Origin: Rhodanobacteraceae bacterium
GTDB taxonomy: Bacteria > Pseudomonadota > Gammaproteobacteria > Xanthomonadales > SZUA-5
Length of the DNA stretch: 64,000 nucleotides
Assembly (NCBI GenBank): GCA_016717705.1
Contig: JADKFD010000036.1
Location: 129 to 64,128 of the forward strand
Reading direction: 5' to 3'
Part shown: one piece after another, positions 1,152-55,289 of the stretch
Position numbering within the stretch: the stretch's first letter is position 1
Layout of the letters: each line of letters begins with the position of its first letter
Position numbers and translations under genes: made by a program
Notes under the pieces: model-generated
Database searches by the model: none
Seen by the model: only the letters and a program-made list of their open reading frames with translations
What the model was told of the DNA's origin: nothing

Positions 1152-1511
1152 TCAAGGCCCCTCGAATCCGTTGACGAACACCGTCGGCGGCAATGGCGCC
1201 CCGGCCCAATAGCCACCGGTGACTCCATAGATACCGCCACTGGCTGGACCCAGTGGATCGGCTGTTGCTTGCCCGACACTGCCGGCAATCCGATAGATGC
1301 CGCCGGCAGAACTGCCGCCGCCCGCACCGATGCTGAAGCGATCGACCGCAAAGGCACTGCCCTGCATGATTGAACTCGCGGCAGGAAAAGCATGCGCTGC
1401 CGGCGCCGCCACGGGCTGCGCGCGCTCAGCGGCGACGGGCAGCGCCGCAATCACCAGCGCCAGACCGGCGCCAGCCATCCACGCCAGGTTCTGTCGCGCT
1501 TGCGGGCTCAT
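1152..1511 (-). CDS. small secreted Gly-rich protein ending in VFVNGFEGP
   Basis: ORF 1152..1688(-) trimmed to ATG 1511, which overlaps the upstream stop as ATGA (1508-1511). Signal-like N-terminus LAWMAGAGLALVIAALPVAA. Internal duplication GGIYRIAGSVGQ / GGIYGVTGGYW. Carries the C-terminal F-x-N-G-F-E motif. Confidence 0.6.
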   Translation of the reverse strand: MSPQARQNLAWMAGAGLALVIAALPVAAERAQPVAAPAAHAFPAASSIMQGSAFAVDRFSIGAGGGSSAGGIYRIAGSVGQATADPLGPASGGIYGVTGGYWAGAPLPPTVFVNGFEGP

Positions 1512-3496
1512 TGGCAACTCCGCGTGCCGCACTTGGCGACTTTGAGCGTGCCGCCGACGCCCTGATAGCTGATCACCGGCAGCCCATCGGTGCCAATGGC
1601 AATCGAGCCGTACCAGCCGCCGTTGGTTCCCGACGGATCGTCGAGTACGGTGATCAGGGAGGCGCCGGTACAGGCCGCGTTGTTGCACTTGGCTGTCTTC
1701 AGCGCGCCGACCGTGTCGTCGCGATAGGTCAGCACCGGGAAACCGTCGCTGCCGATGGCCAGATCGAGGTATTCGCCGACCGAATTGGCGGGGTCGTCAA
1801 CGACCGTGATCGTGGATGCGCCCGTGCAGGCGGGATTGGCGCACTTGGCGACCTTGACCGTGTTGGCGGTGGCATCCTGATAGGCAATCACCGGGATGCC
1901 GTCGCTGCCGATGGCCAGCGCCGAGAAGGCGCCAACGTCGTTCGCCGAATTGTCGACGGTGGTAAGCGTTGCCGCACCGGAGCAGGCCATGTTGCTGCAC
2001 TTGGCTACCTTCAGCGAACCGGCGCTGCCGTCCAGATAGCCGATCACCGGAAAGCCGTCGGCGCCGATGGCTATCGACGAAAAGTAACCGACGCTCGCCG
2101 TCGCATCGACGGTGCTGATGGTCGCCGTCCCGGTGCAGTTGGCATTGGCGCAGCGGGCCACCTTGAGCGCGCCCACGCCGGTTTCGTCCACGTAGCTGAT
2201 CACCGGGATACCGTCATTGCCGATCGCCAACGAGGTGTAGGTGCCGACCCCGGTGGTTGCATCGACCGTGGTGATGATCGCCGGACTGGCGCAGGCAGCG
2301 TCGACGCACTTGGCGACCTTCAGGACTTCCAGTCCGTCAGCGTAGTAACTGACGATCGGCAGGCCATCGGCGCCAATCGCCACCGAGGTGTATTGCCCGG
2401 CGGCATCGACGCCATCCTCGATGATCGACAGCGTGGACGGGCCGGTGCAACGGGCGTTGGAGCACTTGGCGGCCCACAGCGACAGCGCCGTGTTGCTGTC
2501 GTCGCGATAGACGATGATCGGCAGGCCATCGGCCGGGACCGCTATCGTCGTGAAATCGCCGACATAGTCGGCCGGATCGTCGACCGTGGTGATGCTGTTG
2601 GCGCCCGGCACGTCGACACAGACGACGCTGCCGTCGGCATTGATGCCGCGCAGGTAGCTGCCCAGCGGGCAACTGCCGCTGACGCGCGCCTGCACCTGGG
2701 CGACGTTGATCTGCGCGAGCCCGACGCCGCCGTTGGCGATGGCGATGGTGCCCGTGCCGCTGATCGGACCGCCCGTCAGACCCGTGCCGCTGCCTACACT
2801 GGTGACCGTGCCGCCGCTGTTGGCGTCCGTCCCGCACACCACCGTGCCGTCGGCATTGACCTGGCGCACATACTGCCCGGCCACGCAGTTGCCGCTGACG
2901 CGGCTCTGGATCAGCGTGGTGTCCACTGCCAGCGTGCCACTGCCGGTGATGACGCCGCCGGTCAGCCCGGCACCGGCAGCGATGCTGGTCACGCTGCCGC
3001 CGCTGTCGTTGTCGATACCATCCGCGAATCCCGCTGGTACGCCGCTGACGCCGGACCAGGGTACGAGGTTGGCGACCGCTGCGTGCTGCGCTTCCGGCGC
3101 TGCGCGGACCAACTGGCGCGGACTCAGCGCCGTGTAAGCGCCAGTGCTGGCACCCGCCCGCACGCGCAGTTCAAGGTAGCGCTCCTGACCGGCAAATGCG
3201 CCGGCGCCGAAATCGATCGAAATGGCGAACAGCCCGGATTCGACCGGCACATCGTTGGCATCCGCCGCACAGGCGATCTGCACCGGGTTGACGAGACTGT
3301 CGAACAGGCAGACCTGCAGGTCGTACAAGCCGGAGGCAGGCTGGCCGGACTCGGTCAGTTGTCCCTGGTAACTGAAGGCGGTTCCCAATGCGGCGGCCGG
3401 CAACTGCAGCGGAGCGATGATCAGCCCCGCGCAGCACAGCCCAATCCAGAAACCGATCCCGTTTCCTGCAACGCCGGAAGGCGAGTGTCCGAGCAT
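1508..3496 (-). CDS. secreted repeat protein: tail-fibre-like N-half plus seven Cys-clamped ~47-aa repeats (propeller-like)
   Basis: ORF 1508..3583(-). Start set to ATG 3496 (GGGGA 6 nt upstream; hydrophobic GFWIGLCCAGLIIAPLQLPAAALG). The N-half has duplicated SGG(S/T)VTS..G.GLTGG.I.G(S/T)GT and RVSG.C..G.Y.R.(V/I)NADG.VVC segments. The C-half has 7 units TTVD....VG.Y.S.AIG.DG.PVI.Y.D.....LKVAKC.N..CTG. No characterised homologue recognised. Confidence 0.75.
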   Translation of the reverse strand: MLGHSPSGVAGNGIGFWIGLCCAGLIIAPLQLPAAALGTAFSYQGQLTESGQPASGLYDLQVCLFDSLVNPVQIACAADANDVPVESGLFAISIDFGAGAFAGQERYLELRVRAGASTGAYTALSPRQLVRAAPEAQHAAVANLVPWSGVSGVPAGFADGIDNDSGGSVTSIAAGAGLTGGVITGSGTLAVDTTLIQSRVSGNCVAGQYVRQVNADGTVVCGTDANSGGTVTSVGSGTGLTGGPISGTGTIAIANGGVGLAQINVAQVQARVSGSCPLGSYLRGINADGSVVCVDVPGANSITTVDDPADYVGDFTTIAVPADGLPIIVYRDDSNTALSLWAAKCSNARCTGPSTLSIIEDGVDAAGQYTSVAIGADGLPIVSYYADGLEVLKVAKCVDAACASPAIITTVDATTGVGTYTSLAIGNDGIPVISYVDETGVGALKVARCANANCTGTATISTVDATASVGYFSSIAIGADGFPVIGYLDGSAGSLKVAKCSNMACSGAATLTTVDNSANDVGAFSALAIGSDGIPVIAYQDATANTVKVAKCANPACTGASTITVVDDPANSVGEYLDLAIGSDGFPVLTYRDDTVGALKTAKCNNAACTGASLITVLDDPSGTNGGWYGSIAIGTDGLPVISYQGVGGTLKVAKCGTRSCQ

Positions 3497-3541
3497 GAAT
3501 TTCCCCAATGGCTGCACCCGGCGCCCGGGTGTCATTGCCAT

Positions 3542-3572
3542 AAGCACGCTGCGGCGTGCAAAGCGCTCACGT
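3542..3572 (-). promoter_or_regulatory. conserved 31-nt box, copy 1 (AAGCACGCTGCGGCGTGCAAAGCGCTCACGT on + strand)
   Basis: 27/31 identical to 9271-9301. Both copies sit 5' of large minus-strand secreted-repeat-protein genes: 46 nt upstream of ATG 3496 and 112 nt upstream of ATG 9159. Confidence 0.3.
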
Positions 3573-3767
3573 TCATGACGCAATGCGCGAATTCAGTGGC
3601 TTGTTGAATGAGACGCGCCCGAGGTAGGCCGCGTATGCGCTTCACCGCGCCCACCGGCGCTTGTGACGCAAGCGACGCGACAAGCGCCGGTGAGCCGCTG
3701 CGCGGCACCCTCGGCCTACGGGGGCGTGTTCAATCGGCGGCACTCGGCGAAATCACCGGTGGTCGCA

Positions 3768-3848: not shown

Positions 3849-4268
3849 TCATTGCAGCGGCACCAGGCTCACGAGATCTGGCCGCAGCGCTGCCAGTCCG
3901 CGGTCGAAGCTGACCAGGCGGGCGTGTTTGGAACCGGCCAATGCGACCAGATAGGCGTCGGTCACCTGCTTGTGGCCGATCACGCCGCGCCAGTCGATAT
4001 CGACATAACTCAAGCTATCGCCCCAGAAATGGCAACCGGGCCAGGCCTTGACTGCCGCCAGAATGGCGATCGCATTGGCGATTCCCGCAACGGGATTGTC
4101 GCGCAACATCTGACGCACCAAGGCACCTTCGGTGATCGCACAAAGCGCAAGAGTCGGCTGCTCGCGAGCGACCTTGCCCAGACTGGCAAGCCAGCGCATC
4201 GCGTCCTCGTGATGCACATGCTCGGGCATGCACAGCGCGATCAACAGATTCGAATCCAGCAGGTACAT
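3849..4268 (-). CDS. vapC: type II toxin VapC (PIN domain ribonuclease)
   Basis: ORF 3849..4271(-). MYLLDSNLLIAL...AITEGALVR...VTDAYLVALAGSKHARLVSFDRG shows the PIN acidic residues and layout. The ATG overlaps the antitoxin stop as TGATG. Confidence 0.85.
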   Translation of the reverse strand: MYLLDSNLLIALCMPEHVHHEDAMRWLASLGKVAREQPTLALCAITEGALVRQMLRDNPVAGIANAIAILAAVKAWPGCHFWGDSLSYVDIDWRGVIGHKQVTDAYLVALAGSKHARLVSFDRGLAALRPDLVSLVPLQ

Positions 4269-4513
4269 CACTCGTCATCCTGCATCTGCCGCACCATCTC
4301 TGTGGTGATCGGACCACTGCCCAGACGCATGGTCGGAAATCCGGTCACCGGGTGATAGACGATCTTGCCGAGCGACTGTCCCTGCTGCGGAGGCGAATTC
4401 AGCGCTCGGCGCATGAGGTCGACGACCACCTGGCTCATGCTCACACGCTGGTTGTGCGCGAGTTGTCCGGCGATGGCGTGCAGATCGGCCGGCAAATCGA
4501 TGGTTGTTCGCAT
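4268..4513 (-). CDS. vapB: VapB-type antitoxin (81 aa)
   Basis: ORF 4268..4711(-) trimmed to ATG 4513. MRTTIDLPADLHAIAGQLAHNQRVSMSQVVVDLMRRAL. Small size and position directly upstream of the PIN toxin. Confidence 0.75.
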   Translation of the reverse strand: MRTTIDLPADLHAIAGQLAHNQRVSMSQVVVDLMRRALNSPPQQGQSLGKIVYHPVTGFPTMRLGSGPITTEMVRQMQDDE

Positions 4514-4606: not shown

Positions 4607-4743
4607 GGAAGCCGCACGCGCCTCATAGTGCGGATTCCACCGCTCGCCGCGCATGTAGCGGCGGTCGGGGCGGCGGAATCCGCGCACCGGTTCTCTACGA
4701 CGGAATCGCAAACTACGGTGGCGCGGGTTCCGCCCTCGGGCTA
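4607..4743. repeat. ~135-nt structured intergenic repeat, copy A
   Basis: Aligns over its whole length at roughly 75-80% identity (by eye) with 9374-9507. It contains complementary arms GCGGATTCCACCGC / GCGGCGGAATCCGC. It abuts the stop codon (4741-4743) of the upstream minus-strand gene. Confidence 0.7.
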
Positions 4744-6174
4744 CAACGGCGGCGCCTCAAAGCCGTTTCCGAATATGCTGACCAATGACGTCAACACCTC
4801 GAAGCTGCCGTCCGCGTCCTCGGCTACTCCGCTGGTTGCGCTCACTTCGATGTGGTAGGTCGCCGCGGAACCGGTACCGGCTGCCGAGGTGTCGCTGGCG
4901 CTGGCGGTCCAGGTCAGCTCCCGCGTTTCGCCCGCCGGAATCGTTTGCAGTTCGATCACGGACGGCGAAGTCAGCAGCGCCACCGGCACCGGGCCGGGCG
5001 TCGATCCGAAGCTGAGCGCGACCGTCACACCGGTGGCCGCTTGTTGTCCGGCATTCACCACCCGCGCACGGATGACGATCGGGCCCGGCGGAGTCTCGAT
5101 CGGGGTGCGGACGTTATCCAAACCGTGCTCCGGCACCCGTACATGGGATGGCGCGGTCAAACCGGCCGCCGCCCCTTGCGCGTTGGCGAGCGCGCTCTCG
5201 AAATTCGTGATTGCCGCGCTGACAGCATCGATCTGCGCGATGCGGAGAGCATCCGTGGTGCCGGGATCGGCAAAATCCGAAATGAGATAGCCCGCGAGCC
5301 GTCCATACAGGATGACGCGCTGACCGGCGAAAACACCTGCGCTCGCCAGTGCCGCGCGATGCGCCGTCGCCAGCGGTTGGGACGGGTTGGCTGCGGCAAG
5401 CGCCAACAGCGGCAGCAGTTCCGACTCGACGGCAAGCTCGAGCGCCGCATCGGCAGCAGCCAGGGCTTCGACCTCGGCGATGGCGCCCGGCCGGTCGTTG
5501 GCCGCAAGCCGGCCTCTGAGTGCGGCCAGACGGGTCGAGTACTCCGACGGCACGACGCCCCCGGAAGGCGAAGATTGAACTGTCTGGTCGACGGTCGCGA
5601 CGACGGCTGCCGGCAGCGATGGGTCGAACGCGCGCCCGGCAACGACGGAAGCGTCGTGGAAGGCGGTGTCGGCGATCATGGTGTAGTCACGGACGCCGAG
5701 TTGCACCAGATCGGCCACGCTGATATCGATGAGGCTGGCTCCGATCAAATCGAACAGCTGCTCCAGTGGGAATGCTTCGTTCGGGCTAACGACCAATTGC
5801 ACAAACAACGCTGCGCTTCGCCATCCCTCCCGCGCAGAGCCCACGGCTTCGGAGGCTAGCGCCTGATCGAAGTTGCGCTGCAGCACCATCGTTGCGTGCT
5901 GCCGCGAAGCGAGGTAGCCCGCATTGACCGTACCGACGCCTTCGAGGGCGCCAGCTCGGGCCACGGCCAGGTTGAAATCGTTCTGCGTCTGCTCGACGTA
6001 AGTTGAACCGTTGACCGCGGCGCCGACATCCCCGGTGAGCGTGTTGACGACCGCCGCGAGCTGCGCCTCGCGGCCGTCGATGTCCGCCCACGCTGCGGAC
6101 TGGAAGGCACCGAGCACCCCCACCGCAGTGAGCGCAACGCCTGTCCCCACTTGGTCCTGGCCCCACTGCGGCAA
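4741..6174 (-). CDS. C-terminal portion of a giant secreted protein (helical region plus CARDB/DUF11-like domain), ends IFGNGFEAPPL
   Basis: ORF 4741..6174(-), first codon TTG. It has no signal peptide and no SD. It is in the same frame as 6193..9159, separated only by TAA 6193-6195 plus six sense codons (QDFHSL). It is probably one gene with the upstream ORF. Confidence 0.6.
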   Translation of the reverse strand: MPQWGQDQVGTGVALTAVGVLGAFQSAAWADIDGREAQLAAVVNTLTGDVGAAVNGSTYVEQTQNDFNLAVARAGALEGVGTVNAGYLASRQHATMVLQRNFDQALASEAVGSAREGWRSAALFVQLVVSPNEAFPLEQLFDLIGASLIDISVADLVQLGVRDYTMIADTAFHDASVVAGRAFDPSLPAAVVATVDQTVQSSPSGGVVPSEYSTRLAALRGRLAANDRPGAIAEVEALAAADAALELAVESELLPLLALAAANPSQPLATAHRAALASAGVFAGQRVILYGRLAGYLISDFADPGTTDALRIAQIDAVSAAITNFESALANAQGAAAGLTAPSHVRVPEHGLDNVRTPIETPPGPIVIRARVVNAGQQAATGVTVALSFGSTPGPVPVALLTSPSVIELQTIPAGETRELTWTASASDTSAAGTGSAATYHIEVSATSGVAEDADGSFEVLTSLVSIFGNGFEAPPL

Positions 6175-6192
6175 CAGGCTATGGAAGTCCTG

Positions 6193-9159
6193 TTAGGCCC
6201 GATGCTCCTTCTCGGTCCACGCTCTGGCCGCGCGCACGTCCAACGACATAGCCCTCACAATGGCCGCGAGGAGGTTGCTCAGCCCGTGATTCACGCGGCG
6301 CTGGTAGGCGTCGTACATGTCCCACACGAGTCTTCCCGCCGTCAGATAAGACGCTTGCAGATCGACCGTGTGGTGCGCGCTGGCGACGTTCAGCAGTTGG
6401 GTGCCGCTGTACAGATCGGCCAAACCTTCGCTGGCCACCAGCAGGCGTCCCAGCGCACGGTCGCGGGCAGCATGCACCGCAGCAGTTGCCGGCTGCGCCG
6501 AGCTCCAGTTCGACAGCAACGCCCGCGCGTTGGTGGTCGTGTATTTCTGCACCTGGATATCGGTGGTCTCGAGCCGGACGAGTTCAGCGTCCAGCCGCGC
6601 GTGCAAGTCGACCGGCAGCACCAGCGACGTTGCGCCCAGATTGGCTGGCACGACCGCCTGATACGCCCGTTGCAGCCCGAATCCCGCGAGTCTCAGCGTG
6701 TACGGCTGCGATAGATTGACCGCCGCGTTGAAGGAGAAATTGCCCTGGGCGTTGCTGGTCGCCGTGTCGATGACCTGCGCGCCTGAAAGCAGGGTGACGC
6801 TGACCCCGGCAAGTCCAGTTGCGGCGGGATCGCCGAAGCGGTCGGCATCGCGAACGCTGAACGTCGGCGGCGTGACTCCCGGCGGCGCCGCGATGAAGGT
6901 ACCGAAGGCGAATGGTGAGGTTCCCACTGCCACCGTGGCCACCACCGTGTTGCTGCTGGTGGCAATGACCGAGACGTCGTTGCTGACTAAGTTGGCCACG
7001 TAAACATGGCTGCCGCTCGGATTGACGGAAATGCCGAGTGGAGCGGCTCCCACCGCGACGTTGGCTATGCTGGCGTTGCTGGCAAGGTCGACGACGCGGA
7101 CCGTATTGCTGCCGGTCACCGCCACGTAGGCGCGGGTGCCGCTGGCGTTGATGGCGATACCGGTCTGGGGACCGCCTACGTTAATGGTGTCGACAACGGT
7201 GTTGGTGGCGGTATCGATCACCGAAACAAAGGCGATGCCGCCACTGCCTCTGGTCACATAGACGCGGGTGCCCGAGGGGTTGATGGCAACGCCATGTGGA
7301 GAGTTGGCGACCGCCACGGTGGCCACAACCACGTTGGTGGCGCTGTCGATCACCGAGACGCTGTTGGACTCGTTGTTTGCAACATAGACCCGCGTGCCTG
7401 ACGGATTGACCACGACGCCACGCGGAAACGATCCGACGGCCACGGTTGCCACAAACGCGTTGGTAGCTGCATCGAAGACGCTGACGTTGTCGGTTCCCTC
7501 ATTGGTCACGTAAAGGCGGGTTCCGGCCGGGTTGCCCGCCAGGCTATACGTACCCCTGCCGGTAACCATGTTATCGATTACGGTGTTGGTTGCCGTATCG
7601 ATCACCGAGACGCTGCCGTTGATGAAGTTGGGGCCGTTGAGGTAATTGCTCACATAGACCCGGGTCCCTGCCGGGTTCACGGTGACGCCACCAGGCTCGT
7701 CGCCGACGCCGACCGTCGCGACCACCGTGTTGGTCACGGTGTCGATCACCGAGACGTTGTTGTTGGCCGAGTTGGGAATGTAGGCAAATGCTTGTTGCAC
7801 CTGTGGCGCCTGTGGCGTCACGCTGACGCTGGCCGACGCCGGACCGTCGCCGATCCCGTTGGTAGCGACGACCGAACAACCGTAGGCGGTGCCGTTGGTC
7901 AATCCATCGACGGTAATCGGCGAGGCCGCGCCGCTATCGCTGATGCTGCCCGGATTGCAGGTGGCGGTGTAGCCGATGATCGGCGATCCGCCATCGGATG
8001 CCGGGGCGGTGAAATTGATTGTCGCCGTGCCATTGCCAGGCGTCGCGCTTCCGATCCCCGGTGCACCCGGTGCGGTCGCCGCGGCGGGCAAAGTGGCGAT
8101 GAACAGTCCGAAGGCCGCGGGGCCGCCACCAACACCGATCGTCGTGGTCACGCTATTGGTCGCGGTGTCGATGACCGAAACATTGCCGCTGCTGGTGTTG
8201 GCGACATAGACATGGGTACCGGCCGGATTGACCGACACCCCGCGCGGACTGGTTCCCGCCGCCACCGTGGCGACCACGGTGTTGCTGGCGGTATCGATCA
8301 CCGAGACATTGCCGCTGGTCGAATTCGCCACATAGGCGCGGGTCCCGGCCGGATTGATCGCCACGCCGCGGGGTGCAGTGCCGACCGGAATGGTCGCGAT
8401 CACCGCATTGCTGGCGGTATCGATCACCGAAACGTTGTTGCTGCTGAAATTGCCGACATAGGCACGCGTGCCGGCAGGGTTGACGGCCACCCCCTCCGGC
8501 TGGGTGCCGACCGGCACCACTGCGATCACGCTGTTGCTGGTCGTATTGATGATGGAGATATCGTTGCTGAGCCCGCCCGCCACGTAAACGCGAGTTCCCG
8601 CCGGATTGACCGCAAGGCCGCGTGGGCTGCTGCCCACGGCCAGCACGGTTGCGATCACGCCGTTGTCGGCGGTATCGATCACCGACACGCTGCTGCTGGT
8701 GCGATTGGCGACATAGGCGCGGGTGCCTGCCGGATTCACGGCGACACCGATCGGGCCGGTGCCGACGGCGATCGTCGCCAGCACGGCGTTGCTCGCGGTG
8801 TCGATGACCGACACATTGCTGCTGGAGAAATTGCCCACATAGGCGCGCGTGCCCGCCGGATTGACGCCGACGCCGAAGGGGTTGTCGCCGACGGCGACGG
8901 TCGCCACCACCGTGTTGCTGCTGGTGTCGATCACCGAGACATTGTCGGTGCTCTGGTTGCTGATGTAGGCGTACACATCCTGCGCACCGCGGTCCTTGAC
9001 CAGGTCCGCGGCGAACGAGGGGTTCGCCAGCAGCGACAACTGCAGCAGCGCGTGCAGCCAGGCGGTCGATCTGATGGAGGCCTTCCGGCTGGTGGACACC
9101 TGTAGCTGAGTTGTCGCGAGCGACCCTGGACCCGGGTCTGATTCTGAATAGTCGAACAT
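6193..9159 (-). CDS. secreted protein with two 7-unit YVTN-family beta-propellers, an FN3-like module and a CarboxypepD_reg-like domain
   Basis: ORF 6193..9276(-), start set to ATG 9159. Signal-like segment STAWLHALLQLSLLANPSFAADL. There are 7+7 units of the type YV.N..S..VSVIDT..N.V..T..VG..P.GV..NP.GTR.YV. Between them lies APGAPGIGSATPGNGTATINFTAPASDGGSPIIGYTATC...GTAYGCSVVATNGIGDG (FN3-like). Confidence 0.85.
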   Translation of the reverse strand: MFDYSESDPGPGSLATTQLQVSTSRKASIRSTAWLHALLQLSLLANPSFAADLVKDRGAQDVYAYISNQSTDNVSVIDTSSNTVVATVAVGDNPFGVGVNPAGTRAYVGNFSSSNVSVIDTASNAVLATIAVGTGPIGVAVNPAGTRAYVANRTSSSVSVIDTADNGVIATVLAVGSSPRGLAVNPAGTRVYVAGGLSNDISIINTTSNSVIAVVPVGTQPEGVAVNPAGTRAYVGNFSSNNVSVIDTASNAVIATIPVGTAPRGVAINPAGTRAYVANSTSGNVSVIDTASNTVVATVAAGTSPRGVSVNPAGTHVYVANTSSGNVSVIDTATNSVTTTIGVGGGPAAFGLFIATLPAAATAPGAPGIGSATPGNGTATINFTAPASDGGSPIIGYTATCNPGSISDSGAASPITVDGLTNGTAYGCSVVATNGIGDGPASASVSVTPQAPQVQQAFAYIPNSANNNVSVIDTVTNTVVATVGVGDEPGGVTVNPAGTRVYVSNYLNGPNFINGSVSVIDTATNTVIDNMVTGRGTYSLAGNPAGTRLYVTNEGTDNVSVFDAATNAFVATVAVGSFPRGVVVNPSGTRVYVANNESNSVSVIDSATNVVVATVAVANSPHGVAINPSGTRVYVTRGSGGIAFVSVIDTATNTVVDTINVGGPQTGIAINASGTRAYVAVTGSNTVRVVDLASNASIANVAVGAAPLGISVNPSGSHVYVANLVSNDVSVIATSSNTVVATVAVGTSPFAFGTFIAAPPGVTPPTFSVRDADRFGDPAATGLAGVSVTLLSGAQVIDTATSNAQGNFSFNAAVNLSQPYTLRLAGFGLQRAYQAVVPANLGATSLVLPVDLHARLDAELVRLETTDIQVQKYTTTNARALLSNWSSAQPATAAVHAARDRALGRLLVASEGLADLYSGTQLLNVASAHHTVDLQASYLTAGRLVWDMYDAYQRRVNHGLSNLLAAIVRAMSLDVRAARAWTEKEHRA

Positions 9160-9632: not shown

Positions 9633-12102
9633 TCACTCCAGGCCGTTGGCAAAGATCTGCTGCGCCTGCACGGTGACGCATGAAGAGAACTCGCTGGTAT
9701 TGCCCTCCGGATCCGTCGCGGTGGCGGTGACCACGGATCCGAGCGGCAGATCGGCAAGCGCGATCGAGGCCTGACGTTGTTCGCTGGAGATGCCGCCCAG
9801 GTTGATCGTCAGCGTCAGCAGGTGATCTTCGCCCTCGCCGTTGCCACTGCTGTCGCAGGCCGCTGAGCGGTAAAACTCGAAGTAATAGGGCAGCTGGCGT
9901 GGAGTGGTCGGCACGTCGAGGCGAAAATCCACTTCGACGGAAGCGCCGTCGACCACCGCACGCTGCAGTTCCGGGAAGTTCTGCAGTCCGTTGGGGCCAG
10001 TGTCGATGTCGTCCGGGTCATTGGCGGTGACGCCAACGGCGCCGAGATCGATGCCGAGGAAAGCGCTGGCCAGAATCGAGTTGTGGCGCACGCTGAGCGG
10101 TGCGAAACCCACCGTTGAGTGCTTCACGCCCACGTTGTTTCCGCGGATCAGATTGGCGCCCTCGGGCGTTCCGTCGCCAACCAGCACCGGCGCCTTCGAC
10201 GTGGACGGCACGATGGTTTGCACCCCGATGGCATTGCTCAGGGTCGGACGGCCGATCTCGTTGCGGAGAATGCGCGCGCCCGCCTCTCTGACAATGACGC
10301 CGGAGGACTGCCCACCTGCGATCAGATTGCTCTGCGCGGTCAAGTTTTCCGCCGATCAGTGCATTGCTGGCGCCCGCGGCAACCACCACGGCGTTGGTGT
10401 GCGCGTGGCGCACGCTCGCCGTGGCATTGGTGCCGATGATGCATCCCTGCACCGCGACGGAGGCCGCCTGCACACTCACCGAGGCGCTGTCGAAACGGTT
10501 GATCACCAGCCCGCGCACCACGCTTTGTGCGCCCTGCAGGACCAGCCCGGTGGCCGAGACGCCCGCCGCGACACCATTGAGTTCGATGCGCAGTTGCGCA
10601 TTGCCCGGCAGCGTGGTCGCCGTATTCACCGCCGCGCCCGGCTGGGTGTAGCCATCGATCAGCGTCTGTCCGGTCAGCGCCGGCAGCGGCGAGGTCGGGG
10701 CGATGCTCTGCACACCGGCGGCGGGGATGTTGAAGTGGATGCGGTCGGCGCCAGCCTGGGCATTCGCTGCGATGATCGCCTCGCGCAGGCTGCAGTCGGC
10801 GTTACACACGCCATCGGAGGTGTCGGCGGTCTTGCTGACGACGAAGGGCGCCGGCTCGGTGAGCGCCAGGCACGGCGAGAACTCCGAGCTATTGCCCTGG
10901 TTGTCGGTGGCGGTCAGCGTGATGAAGGCGCCGAACGGAATCGGCCTGGCACTGGTGATGTTGCCGGAGAAGCTCTCCACGCTGCCGTTGGCCGAGGCGA
11001 AGGACAAGGTTCCGAGCGCGATCTCGCCGCTGCGGTGCGTGGCGCTGTCGCAACTGCTGCTGGCAAAGGCGCTGATGGTGTAAATCATGAAAAGGTTGCC
11101 GGCGGGGCGATCCAGCGTGCCGCTGATCGAGATGCCGCTGGCGCTGCGCGTGGCGGCCGTCGGCAGCGGGTGGTTCTGCAGGTTGTTGGAGCCGCTGTCG
11201 GCGTCGTCGGGATCGTTCGCGGTGATGCCATCGGTGGTGCTGCCGGACGCCAGGTCGATGCCGAGGCCGCCCAGGTCTTCGAAATCGTTGTTGCCCAGGT
11301 TGACCCGGTTTGCCGACTGCAGCACGGCGATGCCGGTGGTGGAGCCCATCAGGCGATTGGCGCGCAGTGTGCCGATCAGCGTCTGGTCGGCGGCCGCCGG
11401 ACCGTTCACGCGGATACCGACGGTTCCGCTCGACAGGACGAGGGGACGCCCGTGGCGATCGCCACCGATCACGTTGCCATCGATCACCGCACCCACGGCG
11501 TTCACGTCGATGGCGAAGAATCCGGCGATCAGATTGCGATCGGCCGGCTGCGTGCCGCCGATGGTGGCAGCCGGGATGCTCAAGCCCAGTCCGCCGGTGG
11601 TGCTGGGCTTGCTGACCCCGTCTGCGCGCAAGCCGATGAAATTGCCACGCACGGTCACCGCACCAGGATTGGGGCAAGTGGCTTGCAGCGCCAGATCGTC
11701 ACCAATGAAGCCGGACAGCGACAATCCGCGCACCAGCGTGGGCCCGCCGCACACGCGCAGCCCGGTGCCCGCACCGTTGCCGTCCAGTTCGATCAGGATC
11801 ACCGCATTGCTGCCCTCGGCCAGGGTGTTGGGAGCCGCGCCCGGCTGGGTGTAGCCGTCGATCGTCAGCGCTTCGGTGACGGTGCCGAAGCCGATGCCAC
11901 TGGGCTGGATCCGGTGCGGTCCGTTGCCCGGGATGGCGAAGGCGATGGTATCGGCACCGGCGGCGGCGTTCGCTGCATCGACGGCTTCGCGCAAGCTCCC
12001 GGCGCCAAGTCCGGCTGTGGTGGTCACGGTGAAGGTTGCAGCGGCGATCGTGGTGGTCGACAGACACAGCAGGCAGGCGAGCACGGTGTGCGGCAGGCGC
12101 AT
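9633..12102 (-). CDS. secreted double-module beta-helix protein (CSLREA / choice-of-anchor-Q-like), frameshifted as sequenced
   Basis: ORFs 10018..12264(-) and 9633..10343(-) join if one A is removed from the A4 run (T4 at 10345-10348): ...ASNALIGG(N)LTAQSNLIAGG.... Start at ATG 12102 with signal MRLPHTVLACLLCLSTTTIAAA. There are two modules. Each has GSLREAVDAANAAAGADTIAF / CSLREAIIAANAQAGADRIHF, then beta-helix-like repeats, then ANDPDD.D.G.N.LQN.P, then an Ig-like ATD..GN(S/T)SEFS.C. Ends QQIFANGLE. Confidence 0.8.
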
Positions 12103-23658: not shown

Positions 23659-25308
23659 GTGCGCGCATTCCTGAACTTCGCCGCCACCGCTCTGCTGTCG
23701 GCCCTCGCCCTGGCACCGCGCATCGTCGCCGCGCAGGGCGGCCCACCGCCGCTGCCGCCGCTCGGCGCGCCGCCGATTCCGGCGAGCAATCCGCAGACGC
23801 CGGCCAAGATCGCGCTCGGGCAAGCGCTGTATTGGGACGAGCAGCTGTCGATCACCGGCACGGTGGCCTGCGGCACCTGCCATATGCCGCGCGCCGGGGG
23901 CAATGAGCCGCGCACGGCGCAGCCCAACAGCGCCAGCGTCAATCCCGGCAGCGACCAGTTGTTCGGCAGCAACGACGATATCGTCGGCTCGATGGGCGTC
24001 GCCAACCACGACGCCGACGGCCTGTACCAGACCTCTGCCTTGTTCGGGATGGCGCCGCAGGTCGGCACCCGGCAATCGCAGTCGGCGATCAACGCGGCCT
24101 ACCCGACCACCTTGTTCTGGGATGGCCGCGCCGGCAGCGTGTTTGTCGACCCGATCACCCAGACCACGCTGATCGCCAACGGCGGCGCACTCGAAAACCA
24201 GGCGCTCGGACCCGTGGTCAACGGTGTCGAAATGGCGCACACCGCGCGCACGCTGCTCGATGTCGCCACCCGCGTTGCCGGCGTGCGTCCGCTGCGACTG
24301 TCGCCGTACGTGCCGCCAGCGCTGCAGAGCTGGATTGCCAATCGCGATTACCCGACGCTGTTTGCCGAAGTATTCGGCAGCAACGAAGTCACACCGGCGC
24401 GGATTGCGCTGGCGATCGCCAGCTACGAGCGTTCGCTGATCGCCAACCAGACGCCGCATGACCTGCAGAGCCTGACCCAGGCCGAAGTGGCCGGACGCCA
24501 GGCCTTCCAACAGGCTGGCTGCGCACGCTGCCATGGCGGCCCGCTGCTCAGCGACAATGATTTCCACTACATCGGCGTGCGCCCGCAAAACGCCGATCCT
24601 GGCCGCTTTGCGGTGACCGCCAACAATGCCGATCGCGGGCGCATGCGCACGCCGCCGTTGCGCAACGTGGAACTGTCGGCGCCCTACTTCGCCGACGGGC
24701 GTTTCCGCACGCTCGAGGAAGTGGTCGATTTCTACAACCGCGGCGGCGATTTCACGGCGCCGAACAAGGACCCCCGGATCGTGCCGCTGGGCCTCAACGC
24801 GCAACAACGCGCGGCCATCGTCACTTTCCTCAAGCGTCCATTGACCGATCCGCGCGCGCAGAACGAAACGGGACCCTTCGAACGACCGATGTTGTTCAGT
24901 GAGTCACCCTACCTGCCGCAACCAGCCAGTGCCGGCACCCCCGGCCTTGGCGCCACCACGCCTCGATTGTTCGCCGCCGAGCCGCCGCTGGCCGGCAGCA
25001 GCGAATTCACCATTGGCGTCGACCGCGGTCGCGCACTGGCCGCGGCGCGCGCCGTGTTGTCGCTGTCGGACCCGACGTCGGCGGACGCGCCCGCAGTGCT
25101 GACGCAGAACTTCGCGCTGACCAGCAGCGGCAGTGGCTCGATGCACCTTGCTCTGCCCAATGACGCCAATCTCCAGGGCGTGACCCTGTACCTGCGCGTG
25201 TTCGTCGAGGACGCTGCGGCCAGCGGCGGCTGGTCGTCGAGTAACAGCGTCAGCTTCCAGTTGCTGGAGATCAACGATGAGGTGTTCCGCCAGGGCTTCG
25301 AGGACTGA
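23659..25308 (+). CDS. di-haem cytochrome c peroxidase family protein with ~140-aa C-terminal extension ending EVFRQGFED
   Basis: GTG 23659 with a signal peptide. Two CXXCH motifs (CGTCH, CARCH). Family motifs include LGQALYWDEQLS, FWDGRA, MRTPPLRNV and YFADGRF. Confidence 0.85.
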   Translation: MRAFLNFAATALLSALALAPRIVAAQGGPPPLPPLGAPPIPASNPQTPAKIALGQALYWDEQLSITGTVACGTCHMPRAGGNEPRTAQPNSASVNPGSDQLFGSNDDIVGSMGVANHDADGLYQTSALFGMAPQVGTRQSQSAINAAYPTTLFWDGRAGSVFVDPITQTTLIANGGALENQALGPVVNGVEMAHTARTLLDVATRVAGVRPLRLSPYVPPALQSWIANRDYPTLFAEVFGSNEVTPARIALAIASYERSLIANQTPHDLQSLTQAEVAGRQAFQQAGCARCHGGPLLSDNDFHYIGVRPQNADPGRFAVTANNADRGRMRTPPLRNVELSAPYFADGRFRTLEEVVDFYNRGGDFTAPNKDPRIVPLGLNAQQRAAIVTFLKRPLTDPRAQNETGPFERPMLFSESPYLPQPASAGTPGLGATTPRLFAAEPPLAGSSEFTIGVDRGRALAAARAVLSLSDPTSADAPAVLTQNFALTSSGSGSMHLALPNDANLQGVTLYLRVFVEDAAASGGWSSSNSVSFQLLEINDEVFRQGFED

Positions 25309-42233: not shown

Positions 42234-42403
42234 GCGCTTGAATCGGGAGTGCGGCGCCAGTCGCCGCCTCCCGGAAGCCCGCAGGCGCTGATGGGGGGTG
42301 CGGGGCTTCTGGCCGACCCAGATCAGCAGCGGCGCCGCAGTCGCTGCGCCCTGCAAACGCACCCAAGCGCCTGCCAGCCGACCACTCCAAAATGCTCTTA
42401 CTT

Positions 42404-42507: not shown

Positions 42508-42514
42508 ATCACGC

Positions 42515-45925: not shown

Positions 45926-45926
45926 C

Positions 45927-47720: not shown

Positions 47721-47727
47721 GGCGCTC

Positions 47728-50700
47728 ATGAAGCTCACGACGATTTCCGCATTGCTGGCGCTGGTGATCGGAGCGACCAGCCTGTCGCAGGTGGCTCTTG
47801 CCTCGGGCGGCGAAACGCCGGTGGACCGCGTCTACACCAAGGCGCCGGATGCCCCGAAGAACCAGACCTGGGCGCAGGCCGACGCCAAGAGCGCCGGCTG
47901 CATGAGCTGCCACAATCCGATCGACCAGAAATCCATGCACGCCTCGGAAGCGGTGGTGCTGGGCTGCGTCGACTGCCACGGCGGCGATCCGACAATCCAC
48001 GGGCCCAAAGACGGGAACGGGCACGTCGCCAGCGCCCCGGGACATGGCAACGAAGGCGAACACGGCCACGCGGCTGCCGCCTATGGCCCCGAGTACACGG
48101 CGGCGATGGAACAAGCACATGTGCTGCCGCGCTATCCGCACACCTGGCACTACCCGAGTTCGGCCAATCCCGAACGCAGCTACACGCTGTTGAATCGGGA
48201 AGCACCCGAGTTCACCCGCTTCGTCAACCCGAGCGATCTGCGCATCGCCCATGAGGCCTGCGGCGCCTGCCACATGCCGATCATCGAGGCGCCAAGCGCT
48301 CGATCATGGCCACCAGCGCCATGCTCTGGGGTGGTGCTTCCTACAACAACGGGATTTTGCCCTACAAGCGCTACATCCTCGGCGAAGGTTACGAGCGCGA
48401 TGGCGAGGCCGCGATCATCAAGGCGCTGCAGCCAGTCACGCCGGACATGGCCGTTAAGGGCGCGCTGGAGCAACTGGTGCCACTGCCGGCCTGGGAAGTG
48501 ATTCCGCCGGGCGACGTCTTCCGCGTGTTCGAGCGCGGTGGCCGCAACATCAATACCACCTTCCCGGAAACCGGATTGCCGAACTCACTGGGCCAGATTC
48601 AGCGCCTTGAGGAACCCGGGCGCCCCGACTTCAAGCAATCCAATCGCGGCCCGGGTACCGGTCAGCGCATCGGCGTGCCGGTGATCAACATCACCAAGAC
48701 CCGCCTCAATGATCCCAACATGTGGTTCATGGGCACCAACGACCAACCGGGCGACTTCCGCCAGTCCGGCTGCAGCGCCTGTCATGTGCCTTACGCCAAT
48801 GATCGCGATCCGCGCCACTCCGGGCCCTACGCGCAGCACGGCCACATGGGCCTGAGCCAGCAGTCCGACCCGACCATCCCGAAGGACCAGCCCGGACACC
48901 CGCTGAAGCACGCCTTCACGCGTTCGATCCCGACCAGCCAGTGCATGAACTGCCACATGCACCAGCCGAACATGTTCATCAACACCTTCCTCGGCTACAC
49001 CATGTGGGACTACGAGTCCGACGCGCCCTTCATGTGGCCGGAGAAGCAGCAGTACCCGAGCCACGACGAGATGCGCAAGGCGCTCGACCGCAACCCGGAG
49101 GAAGCGGTGATCCGTGGCAAGTGGGCCGACCTGGAATTCGTCAAGGAAGTCTCGGCGCTGAATCCGCAGCTGAAGGACACCCAGTTCGCCGACTACCACG
49201 GCCATGGCTGGAACTTCCGCGCCATCTTCAAGCGTGACCGCAAGGGCAACCTGCTCGACGCCGAAGGCGCCAAGGTTTCCGACGACGACCCGAAGAAGTT
49301 CGAGAAAGCCGTGCACATGTCGAGCATCCACGTCGACCTCGGCTTCCATTGCGTCGACTGCCACTTCGCCCAGGACATGCACGGCAACGGCCATATCGTC
49401 GGCGAAGTCGCCCAGGGCGTCGAGATCCAGTGCAAGGACTGCCATGGCACGCCGGACGCCTATCCGAACCTGATCACCTCAGGTCCGATGGCCAGCAAGC
49501 AAGGCCGCAACCTCGGCGACCTGCGCAATCCGGACGGCAAGAAGCGCTTCGAGTGGATCGACGGCAAACTGATCCAGCGCTCGATCATGGAAAGCGGGCT
49601 GCAGTGGGAAATGTCGCTGGTCAAGGACGTCTCCGACAAGGCCAGCCCGGCCTACAACGCCAAGGCCGATCGCGCGCACACCATGCGCAAGGATCCGCTC
49701 AACCAGAGCTACGGATCAGACGTGCCGCCAGCGAGTACGCGCATGGCGAGGACAAGATGCTGTGCTTCAGCTGCCACACCAGCTGGACCACCAGCTGCGG
49801 CGGCTGCCATCTGCCGATCCAGGCCAACTGGAAGACCGAGCGCCATCATTTCGAAGGCGGCGAGACGCGCAACTACGCGACCTACAACCCGCAGGTCGCG
49901 CGCGACGACGTGTTCATGCTGGCCAAGCATGGCGAGGCCAAGGGCTACAAGTACGCGCCGATGCGTTCGTCCAGCGCCCTGATCCTGTCGTCGACCAACT
50001 CCAACCGCGAGCGCATCTACATCCAGCAGCCGCCGATCGCGGCTTCCGGCTACAGCTCGCAGGCTCTGGCACCGCACTATCCGCACACCGAGCGCCGCAC
50101 CGAAACCAAGACCTGTACCGATTGTCATCTGTCCCAGGAAGGCGACAACAACGCCATCATGGCCCAGTTGCTCGGCCAGGGCACCAAGTTCATGGACTTC
50201 CTCGGCTTCAATGCCTGGGTCGGCGGCGAAGGCGAGATCAGCGCCGTGCGCGTCACCGAATGGGAAGAGCCGCAGGCGGTGGTCGGCAGCTATCTGCATC
50301 GCTATGCCTACCCCGACTGGTACAAGAAGCACGAGGACAACGGGCGCCAGCTGACCGAGGCCTACAAGCATTCCGCGGGCGTGGCCAACTGCATCCAGCT
50401 GCGCGGCGAGTACGTCTACGTGGCCGAAGGCAGCAAGGGCTTCCGGGTCTACGACGCGGCCAGCATCGCCAACAAGGGCATCAGCGAACGCATCATCACC
50501 GCACCCTTCTCGCCGCTGGGCCACGACACCCACATCGACACCAAGAACGCCACTTGTGTCGTGCTGCCGACCACGCAGCCGGTGCAGCCCTCGCGCAACG
50601 AGGGCGATCTGATGCGCAAGGTGAACCTGGAACAGCCGGCGCATCCGATCTACCGCTATGCGTTCATCAGTGATGCCGAGGAAGGCCTGATCGTGGTCGA

Positions 50701-51610
50701 CATCGACACGCTGCACGATGGCGAACCGCGCGACAATTTCCTCGAGCGCGCACTGACCTGGAACGAGAACGGCGTACTGACCGGCGCCCGCCATCTGACC
50801 ATCGCCGGCTACTGGTTCTACTTTGCGACGCCCAAGGGCATCGTCGTGGTCAACATGAATGACCCGCTGAAGCCGCAATACGTGCGCACCGTGGATCTGC
50901 CGGATGTGCGCGGCAGCCAGCAGCAGTTCCGCTACCTGTTCGTGACCACCGGCCGCGGACTGGAGGTGGTCGACATCACCCATCCGGACAAGGCCTATGT
51001 CGTGGCCGATGCCTACGTGCCGATCAAGGACGCACACAAGGTGCACGTCGCGCGCACATACGCCTACGTCGCCGCCGGAGCCGAGGGGCTGGTGATCGTC
51101 GACATCACCAAGCCGGTGAAGCCCGTGCTGTACCAGCGTTTCGACGGCGGCGGCGCCATCTCCGATTCGCGCGACGTCACGGTGGCCTCGACCAATGCCT
51201 CGCTGTATGCCTACATCGCCGACGGTCGCAACGGATTGCACGTGGTGCAACTGACCGGCCCGGACATCCAGCCGAAGTTCTACGGCTACAGCCCGGAACC
51301 GATGCCCAAGCTGATCGCCAGCTACGCCACCGGCAAGGCGGCACTGTCGCTGTCGGACGCCCTGGAACGCGACCGCGCGGTCGATGAAACCGGCGGCCAG
51401 ATCTCGGTACTTGGCCGCATCGGCGCACGTCCGTTGAACGAGGCCGAGCAGCGCGCTTTCTTCCTCGATACCAACGGCAACCCGTGGTTCGTCAGCGACA
51501 AGGTCGATGGTCCGCGTGGAATCACTTCGCCGGTGCTGCCGCGCAAGAACAACCGCACCTACGATCAGCAGCGGGCCGAGGCGGCAAAACCGGCTGGCTC
51601 GCCGCACTGA
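47728..51610 (+). CDS. secreted decahaem c-type cytochrome fused to LVIVD-repeat beta-propeller; two frameshifts as sequenced
   Basis: Three ORFs (47728..48501, 48306..49982, 49349..51610) join at about 48286-48293 (...CHMPIIEA/KRSIMATSAMLWGG) and about 49722-49732 (...NQSYGSDVP/ASEYAHGEDKMLCFSCH). Signal peptide present. Ten CXXCH: CMSCH, CVDCH, CGACH, CSACH, CMNCH, CVDCH, CKDCH, CFSCH, CGGCH, CTDCH. The C-terminal half has GLIVVDI, GIVVVNM, GLEVVDI, GLVIVDI and GLHVVQL. Confidence 0.8.
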
Positions 51611-52588: not shown

Positions 52589-55289
52589 TCAATCCTCCAA
52601 GCCATCGGCGAACAGACTGTCGCCGCCAGTCGACACCAACCGGAATGTGATCCCCTGTCCGTTGATCGGATGCAGGGCTGGCACGGTGTCGCCCTGGCTC
52701 AGATCGCAGAGACTGAGGTAGGCGGGTCCAAGCGGGCACGGGACATTGTTGTACACCTCGTTGATGTAACCGTTGCCGACGCTGGTCGCCAGTCGGTAGC
52801 TGGTCACATAGGAATCGGTTGCCGGCAGCACGAATCGCCCGTCGGTTCCGCTGACTCCGGAGCGCACGTAGTTGGCCCCCCACGTGCTCTCGGACCACAT
52901 GTCGATCACCACGCCGGCCAACGGCTCCCCTGTCGACGCACTCAGCACGCGTCCCTTGGCACCACGCTGCAGGCGCAGATTGAAATCCACTCCGGTCACT
53001 GGTTGTTCGCCGAGTGTAAGCAGCTGGCCCAAAGCCGACGATACGCAGGCAGTGCCGGCGCAATCGACGCCCGGATAGGCCTGGCCGTAGGCCACCAACG
53101 AGTCTTCGACGATGACGCTATACAAGCCCGGATCGACGTCGCTGAGGCTGTAGCGTCCGGCAGCCAGTTGCAGCACACCGTTCGCCAAAGTGCCCGTCTC
53201 GCGGCGCAGGCGCAACTGCAGCGAGCCGCTGCTGATCATGCCTTCAATCGCGACACTCCCCTCGACTCGACCGCTTTGAGTCAGGCTGAAATCAAACTGG
53301 AAGACGCTCTGCGTCGCGACAACCGTCACTGGCGTTGCGCTCGGGCACACCGGGGTGTAGCCGCCGACGACGCACGGGGCATTCGGGTACGCAACATCGA
53401 CATGCTGCGGTGATGACACCGCCACCAGATACGAACCCGGTCGTGCGTAGTTGAATCGATATTCGCCGGTCTGCCCAACGGAAACGGTCAACTGGCTGCC
53501 AACACCGGACAGCGGAATGAGGTAGGCAGTGGCGCCGGCAACCGGCGCGCCGCTGAGCTGGTCGACCACGTTGCCGCGTACCGCCGGGAAGGGACGTGGG
53601 TCGAGGAAGTACTCCTGTGTGCCCTGATTCGCGGTGACGGTGATGGCACTGGCCTGGTTGAGCAGGGATTGGCAATCGGTCAGACAATCAACGTTGGGAT
53701 GAAGGCGCCAGAAGCTGGCATCGGGGTAGCCCGCCTGCACGTAATAGGTGCCGACCGGCACATCGACGAAAGTGACACTGCGATATCCCGGGATGGGGCT
53801 GCTGTAATAGACGTAGGCGTTCTGCGCGACCTGACCACTGGCGTACAACAGATTGACGGCAGCACTGTAATTGGCCTGCGGAAGATCGCGCACATACACC
53901 ACCAATTTGCGCGTCGGCGCCAGTCCTACCGCGTGTTCACGAAAATAGGGATCGCCCGCCTGGAAGGTGATGGGCGTTCCCTGCCCGGTCTGGCAGTAGC
54001 TGACACAGGGAATGTTGTCGAAGGCCTCCGGACGGAAACCTTCGGCGTTGAACGCCGCACGGTAATCGATGCCCGGCCGCAGGCCGAGGAAGCTGACTCG
54101 TCCTGCCCCATCCGCGTAAGCGGTTCCCGGAGCTGAAGTTCGACCACGAAAGCAATGCGGTCGCGCCGGTGAGCGGCGTCCCGTCGACCTCGTTGCTCAG
54201 CCGGAACGACAGCGCATGGCCCAATCCAAGGTCAAAATCGATACCGTCGGTGTTCAGATTGCCCGCAACCGTGATCGGCGCCGGCTGACCCGGGCCACAC
54301 GAACTCAGCGAGTAGGTATCGCCGCCATTGGTGCAGATCACATCGCCATAGGCCTCGTGCAGCACCGAGCCGGATTGCGAATACGCGTTGCCGGTGCGTG
54401 CATAGAAGGTACCGTTGGAACTGGTCATCATCGCGTAATTGCCGTTGGCATCGGTCCCGACGGTGCCGGTGTAGTAGCCGCTGATGCTGGTGAAATTCGA
54501 AACGATCAGCCCAGCCGAAGAAACCGCGCCAGCTGGACTGATCGACACCTTGCCGCTGAACCCGCTGGCCAGGATCGCTGCGATCCGCGCACGCACCGGG
54601 CGAGCCGCATCGCGATTACCGACGCGCACCAGATACGCGGACCTTGATTGCGTCGGCAGCAGGGCCAGCGCCTGCAAACCGTAATAGTCGTCGTTGCTGA
54701 TCAGCGGCTGCGCATCCGCGCATCCGCCGTAGACGGCGATTTCCGTGTCGCCACCTGAGCCCAAGGTCGAAATCGCCGTTCGGCCAGCCGCCGTTGACCT
54801 CACGCGCACCCAGAAAGCATCGCCCTTGGTGCCGGCAGCCGCCAAAGTGGGGGCAAGCGCCGAGCCGGTCGCCAGATCCATCGGGCCGGCGCAGTTCGCG
54901 CCAAGGCTTTCATCGGTGGACGCGCGCACCGCAAGACCCGGCTCAAGTTCGCTGTAGGGCAGGTCGGCAGGTGTCCTCAACTGGCGCAGTTCGTTGTAGC
55001 GATGGGCGTTGGCGAGAAGGCCGAGCAGTTGCCCCAGTTTTGACGTGTCTTCGGCGCGCCCGCGACGCCGCATCCATTCGCCAGTGCCGGCATTGACCTC
55101 GGCCTCGATCCGCGCCAGAGCTGTCGCATCGATGTCGGCACCTTCGCGACCCGCACTATCGGTCAGCATGGTCAACTCGACTTCCAGCCGCTGCGCCAGG
55201 GCGATCGGGTCGTTGGCCGGCCCTGACGCCGGTGCAGACGTCGATAGGGCAATGAGCAAAATCAGCAATAGCGCGCGGATCGGTTTCAT
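52589..55289 (-). CDS. large secreted protein (PPC-like domain plus several CarboxypepD_reg-like domains), ends SLFADGLED; frameshift near 54121-54135
   Basis: ORFs 53937..55394(-) and 52589..53905(-) join: ...ATALLSWSNFS / PGTAYADGAGRVSFLGLRPGIDY...KLVVYVRDL. Start at ATG 55289 with signal MKPIRALLLILLIALSTSAPA. PPC-like segment DAFWVRVRS...GGDTEIAVYGG. Confidence 0.75.

Follow-up and report, generated by a model that had tools for sequence, protein, structure and literature searches.

A 64,000-nucleotide stretch of DNA from a Rhodanobacteraceae bacterium (assembly GCA_016717705.1, contig JADKFD010000036.1, positions 129 to 64,128; hereafter the window) encodes five predicted exported proteins that end in a common short peptide, here called the tag. 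The same tag terminates hundreds of other exported proteins in two bacterial lineages; it is real, abundant and conserved, and apparently has not been described before. On balance, we favour the view that it is a C-terminal sorting tag without a membrane helix, which would act after Sec export and be read by a lineage-specific periplasmic or outer-membrane component.

Five tagged proteins in the window

Six-frame translation of the window gave exactly five matches to the pattern [VIL]F.[NQD]G[FL]E, ending 0, 1, 1, 2 and 4 residues before a stop codon. Both this search and a re-reading of the sequence confirmed the preliminary description of the window, which had reported five C-termini with a common motif within four residues of the stop. 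The ends read TVFVNGFEGP, SIFGNGFEAPPL (the C-terminus of the open reading frame (ORF) at 4741-6174), QQIFANGLE, EVFRQGFED and SLFADGLED, each followed by a stop codon. A looser, stop-anchored expression returned the identical five ends and no others from the window, and no match was obtained in any of 300 second-order Markov simulations of the window sequence. The codons used for the motif differ among the five genes (for example, GTG TTC GTC AAC GGA TTC GAG versus ATA TTC GGA AAC GGC TTT GAG), which indicates conservation of a peptide and not of a DNA repeat. The window stems from an uncultured bacterium of the Lysobacterales and has a G+C content of 64-65%, and the tagged genes represent five of its roughly 50 genes:

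1152..1511, minus strand: small exported protein of 119 amino acids; signal peptide MSPQARQNLAWMAGAGLALVIAALPVAA; tag VFVNGFE (1161-1181) followed by GP and the stop
4741..9159, minus strand: large exported protein with beta-propeller and FN3 domains; tag IFGNGFE (4756-4776) followed by APPL and the stop
9633..12102, minus strand: exported CSLREA-domain protein with a beta-helix-like region; signal peptide MRLPHTVLACLLCLSTTTIAAA; tag IFANGLE (9636-9656) with the stop immediately after
23659..25308, plus strand: exported di-haem cytochrome c peroxidase (MauG/CCP family) with a C-terminal beta-sandwich domain; tag VFRQGFE (25282-25302) followed by D and the stop
52589..55289, minus strand: exported protein with carboxypeptidase-regulatory-like domains; signal peptide MKPIRALLLILLIALSTSAPA; tag LFADGLE (52595-52615) followed by D and the stop

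All five proteins start with a charged and then a hydrophobic stretch, in agreement with the N-terminal Sec-type signals originally ascribed to them, and nothing hydrophobic follows the motif because the stop codon comes next, also as first noted. The five had further been regarded as otherwise unrelated proteins; their motif-bearing ends stood, whereas three of the gene models did not. The ORF at 4741-6174 is the C-terminal third of one gene of ~1,470 codons reaching ~9159, which is split by an in-frame stop (6193-6195) that a tblastn alignment with a homologue (P0003) spans unbroken; Pfam domains were matched in its N-terminal part. The genes at 9633..12102, which matched TIGR04214 with 37 bits, and at 52589..55289 contain frameshifts near 10,340 and near 54,140, respectively. 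The peroxidase matched both Pfam and NCBIfam models, and no family of either database matched the protein encoded at 1152..1511.

Reading-frame defects are numerous in the window (one in-frame stop and several frameshifts) and could reflect long-read assembly error or genuine gene decay. They touch three of the five tagged genes but not the tagged ends, and since the same tagged ends occur in independent assemblies, they are not the source of the tags.

Conservation of the tag in homologues

An exact-sequence look-up with the window peroxidase returned no entry, and a homology search retrieved a protein with 99% identity. The closest named relatives come from metagenome-assembled genomes (MAGs) labelled Lysobacterales or Xanthomonadales, followed by Aquimonas, Tahibacter and Pseudomarimonas. 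The tag terminates 114 of the 120 listed di-haem peroxidase homologues (51-99% identity), although the sequence of the preceding linker varies. Counted over these homologues, the tag reads [V55 L36 I18]-[F87 M13 L5 W3]-x-x-[G87 D12 S8]-F-[E101 D8], with no residue after the final Glu or Asp in 48 cases and one residue in 60. This revises the core to [VLI]-[F>M]-x-x-[G>D,S]-F-[E>D], with 0-1 residues after it. The position given as [NQD] in the preliminary description did not withstand this comparison, as it varies freely among peroxidase orthologues (D, N, S, Q, H, A, G, T). On account of this variation, a reactive Asn or Asp of the isopeptide or asparaginyl-endopeptidase type at that site was rejected. 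Sortase-like cleavage distal to Glu is ruled out as a general mechanism, because 48 of the 114 orthologues end exactly at Glu or Asp; the tag may still be removed as a whole.

Relatives of two other window proteins are tagged as well. Homologues of the large exported protein end in ILKDGFEAP (P0002, 85% identity) and MFRDGFEQ (P0003, 49% identity), and in relatives of the CSLREA-domain protein the motif follows the same 'GNTSEFS' domain. One of these relatives (locus L064, 5788-7812) ends in IFEDDFE; in another (locus L011), VFRDGFE after the 'GNTSEFS' domain precedes 62 further residues. Tags of the identical type are present in the complete genomes of the cultured strains Tahibacter amnicola, Tahibacter sp. 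UC22_41 and Chiayiivirga flava DSM 24163, and in T. amnicola the gene adjacent to the peroxidase is likewise tagged (LFAGGFESCDG). The tag is thus kept in orthologues, which removes the concern, raised when it was first noticed, that it might not be conserved there.

Distribution of a short and a long form

One genome per GTDB species was scanned with the pattern VTSTTCNNNRACGGCTTCGAG, corresponding to [ILVM]-F-x-[ND]-G-F-E in high-G+C codons, and at least 119 loci were found. Among the 118 matches listed with a measurable stop distance, 76 lie within 16 residues of the stop; the distance is 0-5 residues in 20 cases and 8-16 residues in 56, and 42 of the latter lie at exactly 12 residues. Among the matches listed, the short form derives nearly exclusively from Lysobacterales, including Tahibacter sp. 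UC22_41 (complete genome), C. flava DSM 24163, Denitratimonas, Aquimonas, Dokdonella, Rudaea, Ahniellaceae, Rhodanobacteraceae and MAGs labelled Lysobacterales or Proteobacteria. The long form comprises 19 residues (IFADGFESGDTSAWSxxVP-stop; consensus [ILV]F.DGFE[ST]GD.S.WS..[VT]P-stop) and was found, in the same list, in Thermoanaerobaculia (including Ca. Multivoradales and Sulfomarinibacteraceae), Holophagae and unclassified Acidobacteriota. No matches from Xanthomonas, Stenotrophomonas or Lysobacter proper were among those listed, an absence that is merely suggestive given the incomplete GTDB sample. In homologous protein families, the members from Lysobacterales bear the short form and those from Acidobacteriota the long one, which suggests that the two forms are equivalent.

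The codon pattern misses some tags, which were seen in the 8-kb pieces L005, L027, L035, L064 and L105. In related genomes, two or three tagged genes often lie within one 8-kb piece. Three consecutive tagged genes, including the IFEDDFE variant, occupy 3197-7812 of L064, a Lysobacterales MAG, and side-by-side pairs were observed in an Aquimonas MAG (L105, 1-3741) and in T. amnicola (L122, 9433-12460). One Holophagae MAG contributed five of the listed strict-codon matches, four on a 1.37-Mb contig (L009, L028 and two in L117) and one on a second contig (L086); this density suggests that a genome encodes tens to hundreds of carriers.

When 5.8 billion proteins were searched with the consensus tag in doubled form, 707 short fragments matched with E-values of 10 or below. 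Of the best 120, 117 contained the motif, in 111 cases at the extreme C-terminus, and none was informatively named. One metagenome ORF of 46 amino acids (P0162) consists of a signal peptide and the 19-residue tag alone (MRIRPMMRLARPAVVALVLATVPCAAA-IFADGFESGDTGAWSAMVP), and could represent either a naturally occurring 'tag-only' substrate or a protein with a miscalled start.

Proteins that carry the tag

A signal-peptide-like N-terminus was found in 14 of 18 short-form and 37 of 40 long-form ORFs (51 of 58 in total), compared to 18% of 1,652 control ORFs from the same loci, with a crude hydrophobicity test used as the signal-peptide call outside the window. The enrichment among signal-peptide proteins that the preliminary description had proposed as a check is thus strong.

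As judged by domain content, the carriers belong to many unrelated extracellular families comprising varied enzymes and adhesin-like proteins. Pfam matches among 70 carriers included FG-GAP (eight members), beta-helix (four), BNR, InhA-like MAM, peptidases M14, M28, S8 and M36-like, reprolysin, endonuclease I, glucose/sorbosone dehydrogenase and cadherin-like domains. NCBIfam assigned many carriers to families whose defining feature is a C-terminal anchor; its matches comprised choice-of-anchor Q (eight), choice-of-anchor B (two), myxosortase- and rhombosortase-dependent M36 peptidases (four each), rhombotarget A (two) and MtsC-like proteins (two). The tag starts a few residues past the end of the choice-of-anchor Q or B match. 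Furthermore, two outgroup homologues of the peroxidase have other domains at the position of the tag, namely a type IX secretion system (T9SS) type A sorting domain (P0109; TIGR04183, 23.5 bits at a cut-off of 23) and a Soli_cterm domain (P0121). According to these matches, the tag occupies the 'anchor' position that known sorting signals hold in homologues.

In a proteobacterial MAG that bears the tag, the end of one ORF (L079, 6965-7999, minus strand) resembles a classical three-part sorting signal (...PPVPVPVDARWALMLMVLAFLALAARQSRRSH), so that signals of the sortase or exosortase type may occur alongside the new tag within one genome.

Structure and likely origin

An AlphaFold2 model of the peroxidase, based on an alignment of 93 sequences, had a mean predicted local distance difference test score (pLDDT) of 91.5 and a predicted template modelling score of 0.89. 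The last nine residues, which constitute the tag, reached a pLDDT of only ~51 and were not packed against the preceding beta-sandwich. The low-confidence, unpacked tail suggests that the tag behaves as a flexible linear motif, and the model accordingly depicts it as a flexible linear tail on an otherwise confident fold.

Where the motif occurs inside proteins, it forms the first strand of concanavalin-like jelly-roll domains (Laminin_G_3, Cip1-like PF21340 and CBM_4_9); the PF21340 match begins at model position 2. The tag probably derives from this first strand. A conserved ...VP end without counterpart in full jelly-roll domains is, however, peculiar to the long form.

Comparison with known C-terminal signals

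No Pfam or NCBIfam (release 20) model was found on the tag in searches with the five proteins, with isolated tails of 43-53 residues and with a 22-residue consensus, with E-values up to 10 admitted for the tails. A literature search likewise found no searchable paper containing tag sequences or describing such a signal. These results uphold the preliminary description, which could match the motif to no named system.

Small C-terminal sorting domains consist of a motif, a transmembrane helix and an Arg-rich cluster (bioRxiv 10.1101/2023.06.07.544157). Like such tripartite signals (LPXTG/sortase, PEP-CTERM/exosortase, GlyGly-CTERM/rhombosortase, MYXO-CTERM/myxosortase and IPTL-CTERM), the tag is short, located at the extreme C-terminus and present in many copies per genome. 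It also resembles them in its occurrence on unrelated signal-peptide proteins, its patchy distribution across lineages and the choice-of-anchor, M36 and rhombotarget families that it shares with them. In contrast to them, no transmembrane helix follows the tag, the stop codon being reached within 0-4 residues in the window and 0-12 elsewhere; a basic cluster is absent, the tails being acidic or neutral (...GFE, GFED, GFEGP, GFEAPPL, ...WSATVP); and tags ending at Glu have nothing distal to cleave. Without helix and Arg-rich cluster, the way in which tripartite signals are presented to an intramembrane sorting enzyme is not open to the tag. We therefore rejected its membership in the tripartite class, of whose three defining parts only the motif is present.

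The T9SS C-terminal domain (TIGR04183, type A; TIGR04131, type B) is likewise a C-terminal signal on a Sec-exported, soluble periplasmic intermediate. However, it is a folded beta-sandwich of ~70-100 residues, whereas the tag is a flexible peptide of 7-19 residues without a hidden Markov model match. Identity with the T9SS domain was rejected, as the tag is too short, unfolded in the model and without a match to TIGR04183 or TIGR04131. To our knowledge, the carrier lineages are not known T9SS lineages. By analogy, the logic of the tag nevertheless appears to resemble the T9SS arrangement most, with Sec export first and then a C-terminal signal on a soluble periplasmic intermediate.

Jelly-roll domains (Laminin_G_3, CBM_4_9, Cip1-like PF21340 and InhA-like MAM) usually start with F-x-[DE]-[DG]-F-E-x-G-...-W and thus match the tag in their first strand. 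The remaining ~150-200 residues are absent in tagged proteins, and a full domain was found only behind internal motifs; the tag was therefore not assigned to this class. With the C-terminal beta-signal of outer-membrane proteins and with type I signals, the tag shares a C-terminal, aromatic-containing motif recognised after or during export. The beta-signal, however, is a terminal aromatic residue on a beta-barrel, whereas tags end in E, D, P or similar residues; it was rejected because of these acidic ends and because the model of the peroxidase carrier shows a soluble haem-enzyme fold together with a beta-sandwich. As far as we know, type I secretion substrates lack Sec signal peptides. A type I signal, already considered unlikely when the motif was first noticed, was discarded on account of the Sec-type signal peptides of the carriers.

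A putative sorting function and alternative explanations

The preliminary description had taken the motif for a sorting, processing or attachment tag. Its location where homologues hold known sorting signals agrees with this suggestion, and which of these functions it serves is inferred from position and context; a dedicated reading machinery, its identity and any cleavage of the tag are likewise only inferred. According to the sorting model that we favour, a carrier would cross the inner membrane via Sec by means of its N-terminal signal peptide and fold in the periplasm. Its flexible C-terminal tail would then be read by a lineage-specific periplasmic or outer-membrane component, which would move the carrier across the outer membrane or hold it at the cell surface. 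The element recognised would be the core hydrophobic-F-x-x-G-F-E, which in Lysobacterales ends at Glu or one residue past it and in Thermoanaerobaculia extends to 19 residues (...GFESGDTSAWSxxVP). Because the core matches the jelly-roll first strand, we propose that the tail may be read as an added beta-strand. The model is supported by the location of all five motifs next to a stop codon, by the retention of the tag in homologues despite variable linkers, by the signal-peptide-like N-termini of most carriers and the many unrelated extracellular families to which they belong, by the 'anchor' position, by the flexible tail of the peroxidase model, by the suggested equivalence of the two forms and by the 46-amino-acid ORF P0162.

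In a broader and somewhat more tentative interpretation, the tag may represent a new envelope sorting pathway common to the Thermoanaerobaculia and Holophagae (Acidobacteriota) and some Lysobacterales. Such a pathway would read a flexible C-terminal peptide of 7-19 residues that lacks a membrane helix and has the core phi-F-x-x-G-F-E (phi, hydrophobic). It may serve tens to hundreds of proteins exported via Sec in each genome, by a mechanism unlike both the intramembrane processing of the sortase and exosortase type and the folded domain of the T9SS.

Several observations weigh against a sorting role. Clustering of the neighbours of ~75 tagged loci (~1,850 ORFs from 120 loci) yielded no candidate sorting enzyme or transporter. 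The only recurrent neighbours were Ser/Thr kinase-TPR, extracytoplasmic function (ECF) sigma factor, PP2C phosphatase, SDR and ABC families, and by a rough estimate the recurrence of these common families is at chance level. No obvious machinery candidate was found in the rest of the window either, where the genes have housekeeping, signalling and redox functions. In addition, ~40% of the Lysobacterales tags have no residue after Glu, and distal transpeptidation in the style of sortases is impossible in these. Finally, since the core is an ordinary first strand of concanavalin-like jelly-roll domains, it could have a structural origin unrelated to sorting.

ECF sigma genes lie beside tagged genes in three loci (L020, L105 and L111) and Ser/Thr kinase-TPR genes in seven; roughly estimated, this adjacency does not exceed chance for such common families.

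Clearly less probable than a sorting tag, but the strongest of the alternatives, is a docking peptide, in which the detached jelly-roll first strand would bind a partner non-covalently, such as a surface protein with an open-edge or strand-lacking jelly-roll or beta-sandwich. This binding would resemble donor-strand complementation in chaperone-usher pili and would fasten numerous enzymes to a common scaffold or to the surface of the cell. Such docking is consistent with the genuine Laminin_G_3, Cip1-like (PF21340) and CBM_4_9 domains that the same sequence starts elsewhere, with the flexible and exposed tag of the AlphaFold2 model and with its presence on many unrelated enzymes; tags without any residue after Glu also fit binding and not distal cleavage. 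However, no partner with an incomplete jelly-roll was identified, and strand pairing alone would leave unexplained why the long form ends in a conserved ...VP and keeps a fixed spacing of 12 residues. Moreover, docking overlaps with the surface-retention branch of the sorting model.

PDZ domains bind C-terminal peptides as an added strand. The tail could thus be a proteolytic control element, that is, a site for a periplasmic protease that binds C-termini (PDZ-containing Prc/Ctp or DegP/DegS type), leading to activation, trimming or turnover without any targeting. We consider this improbable. The motif is indeed extreme C-terminal, flexible and aromatic-rich, and the long form could in principle be trimmed to ...GFE, which is already the end of the short form. 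Yet proteolytic control does not account for homologues in which T9SS, GlyGly-CTERM or MYXO-CTERM signals stand in place of the tag, nor, since such proteases are universal, for the restriction of the tag to two lineages. No protease gene is recurrent beside tagged genes.

More improbable still is a structural remnant with no signalling role, in which the tail would be what is left of a C-terminal jelly-roll domain since lost, or a small calcium-binding cap derived from it. It would account for the resemblance to the jelly-roll first strand, and such domains are often C-terminal in secreted proteins (for example, L112 and L036). It would also demand that dozens of unrelated families were each truncated independently at one and the same residue, which is implausible, as is purifying selection on a leftover across orthologues down to 51% identity; in addition, the tag follows many fold types and is left unpacked on the preceding domain by AlphaFold2. 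Chance or an assembly artefact, such as premature stops created by the frame defects of the window, is already refuted by the simulations devoid of matches and by the same C-terminal tag in independent assemblies, including the complete genomes of cultured strains.

Should the tag indeed act in sorting, it would follow earlier C-terminal sorting tags, which have repeatedly revealed envelope machinery, including sortases, exosortases, rhombosortase, myxosortases and the T9SS sortase PorU. As it lacks the membrane helix and basic tail of every known sortase-type signal, its reader should work differently. The tag spans two phyla, marks proteases, nucleases, haem enzymes and adhesin-like proteins, and is found in bacteria common in activated sludge, soil and sediment. 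For these mostly uncultured lineages, it offers a simple sequence criterion by which the extracellular proteome can be predicted, and as a yes/no genome trait it could be used in phylogenetic profiling for the machinery. Cultured carriers exist in T. amnicola, C. flava DSM 24163 and Pseudomarimonas arenosa.

Other features of the window

The small tagged gene at 1152-1511 overlaps by 4 nucleotides with a gene (1508-3592, minus strand) for an exported protein of 694 amino acids, which contains at least four tandem repeats ending in '...LKVAKC...C' and had no Pfam match. An ECF sigma factor gene of the PF07638 type (~467-1030) is located next to them, and the three genes are tightly spaced on the minus strand. 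Between the two tagged genes at 1152..1511 and 4741..9159 lies a PIN-domain gene (3849-4274, minus strand), which probably encodes the toxin of a toxin-antitoxin pair.

A run of genes on the plus strand (36919-51610) encodes a fusion of cyclic-nucleotide-binding, flavin-oxidoreductase and 4Fe-4S domains, a membrane protein, a multihaem cytochrome c, an HbpS-like protein, a 643-amino-acid protein without Pfam match that ends in ...NVILTY, and an LVIVD-repeat protein. The run may be an envelope redox module, and none of its members carries the tag.

Frameshifts are also apparent from three pairs of overlapping ORFs (55514-56695/56086-58476, 48255-49982/49238-51610 and 33077-33757/33459-35441), in which both members have a high third-position G+C content and ends that look to be out of frame. 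Lastly, an ORF at 18651-19073 (minus strand) contains a long (HQ)n repeat, with weak Pfam matches to ZrgA and selenoprotein-P-like families, and may encode a metal-binding periplasmic protein.

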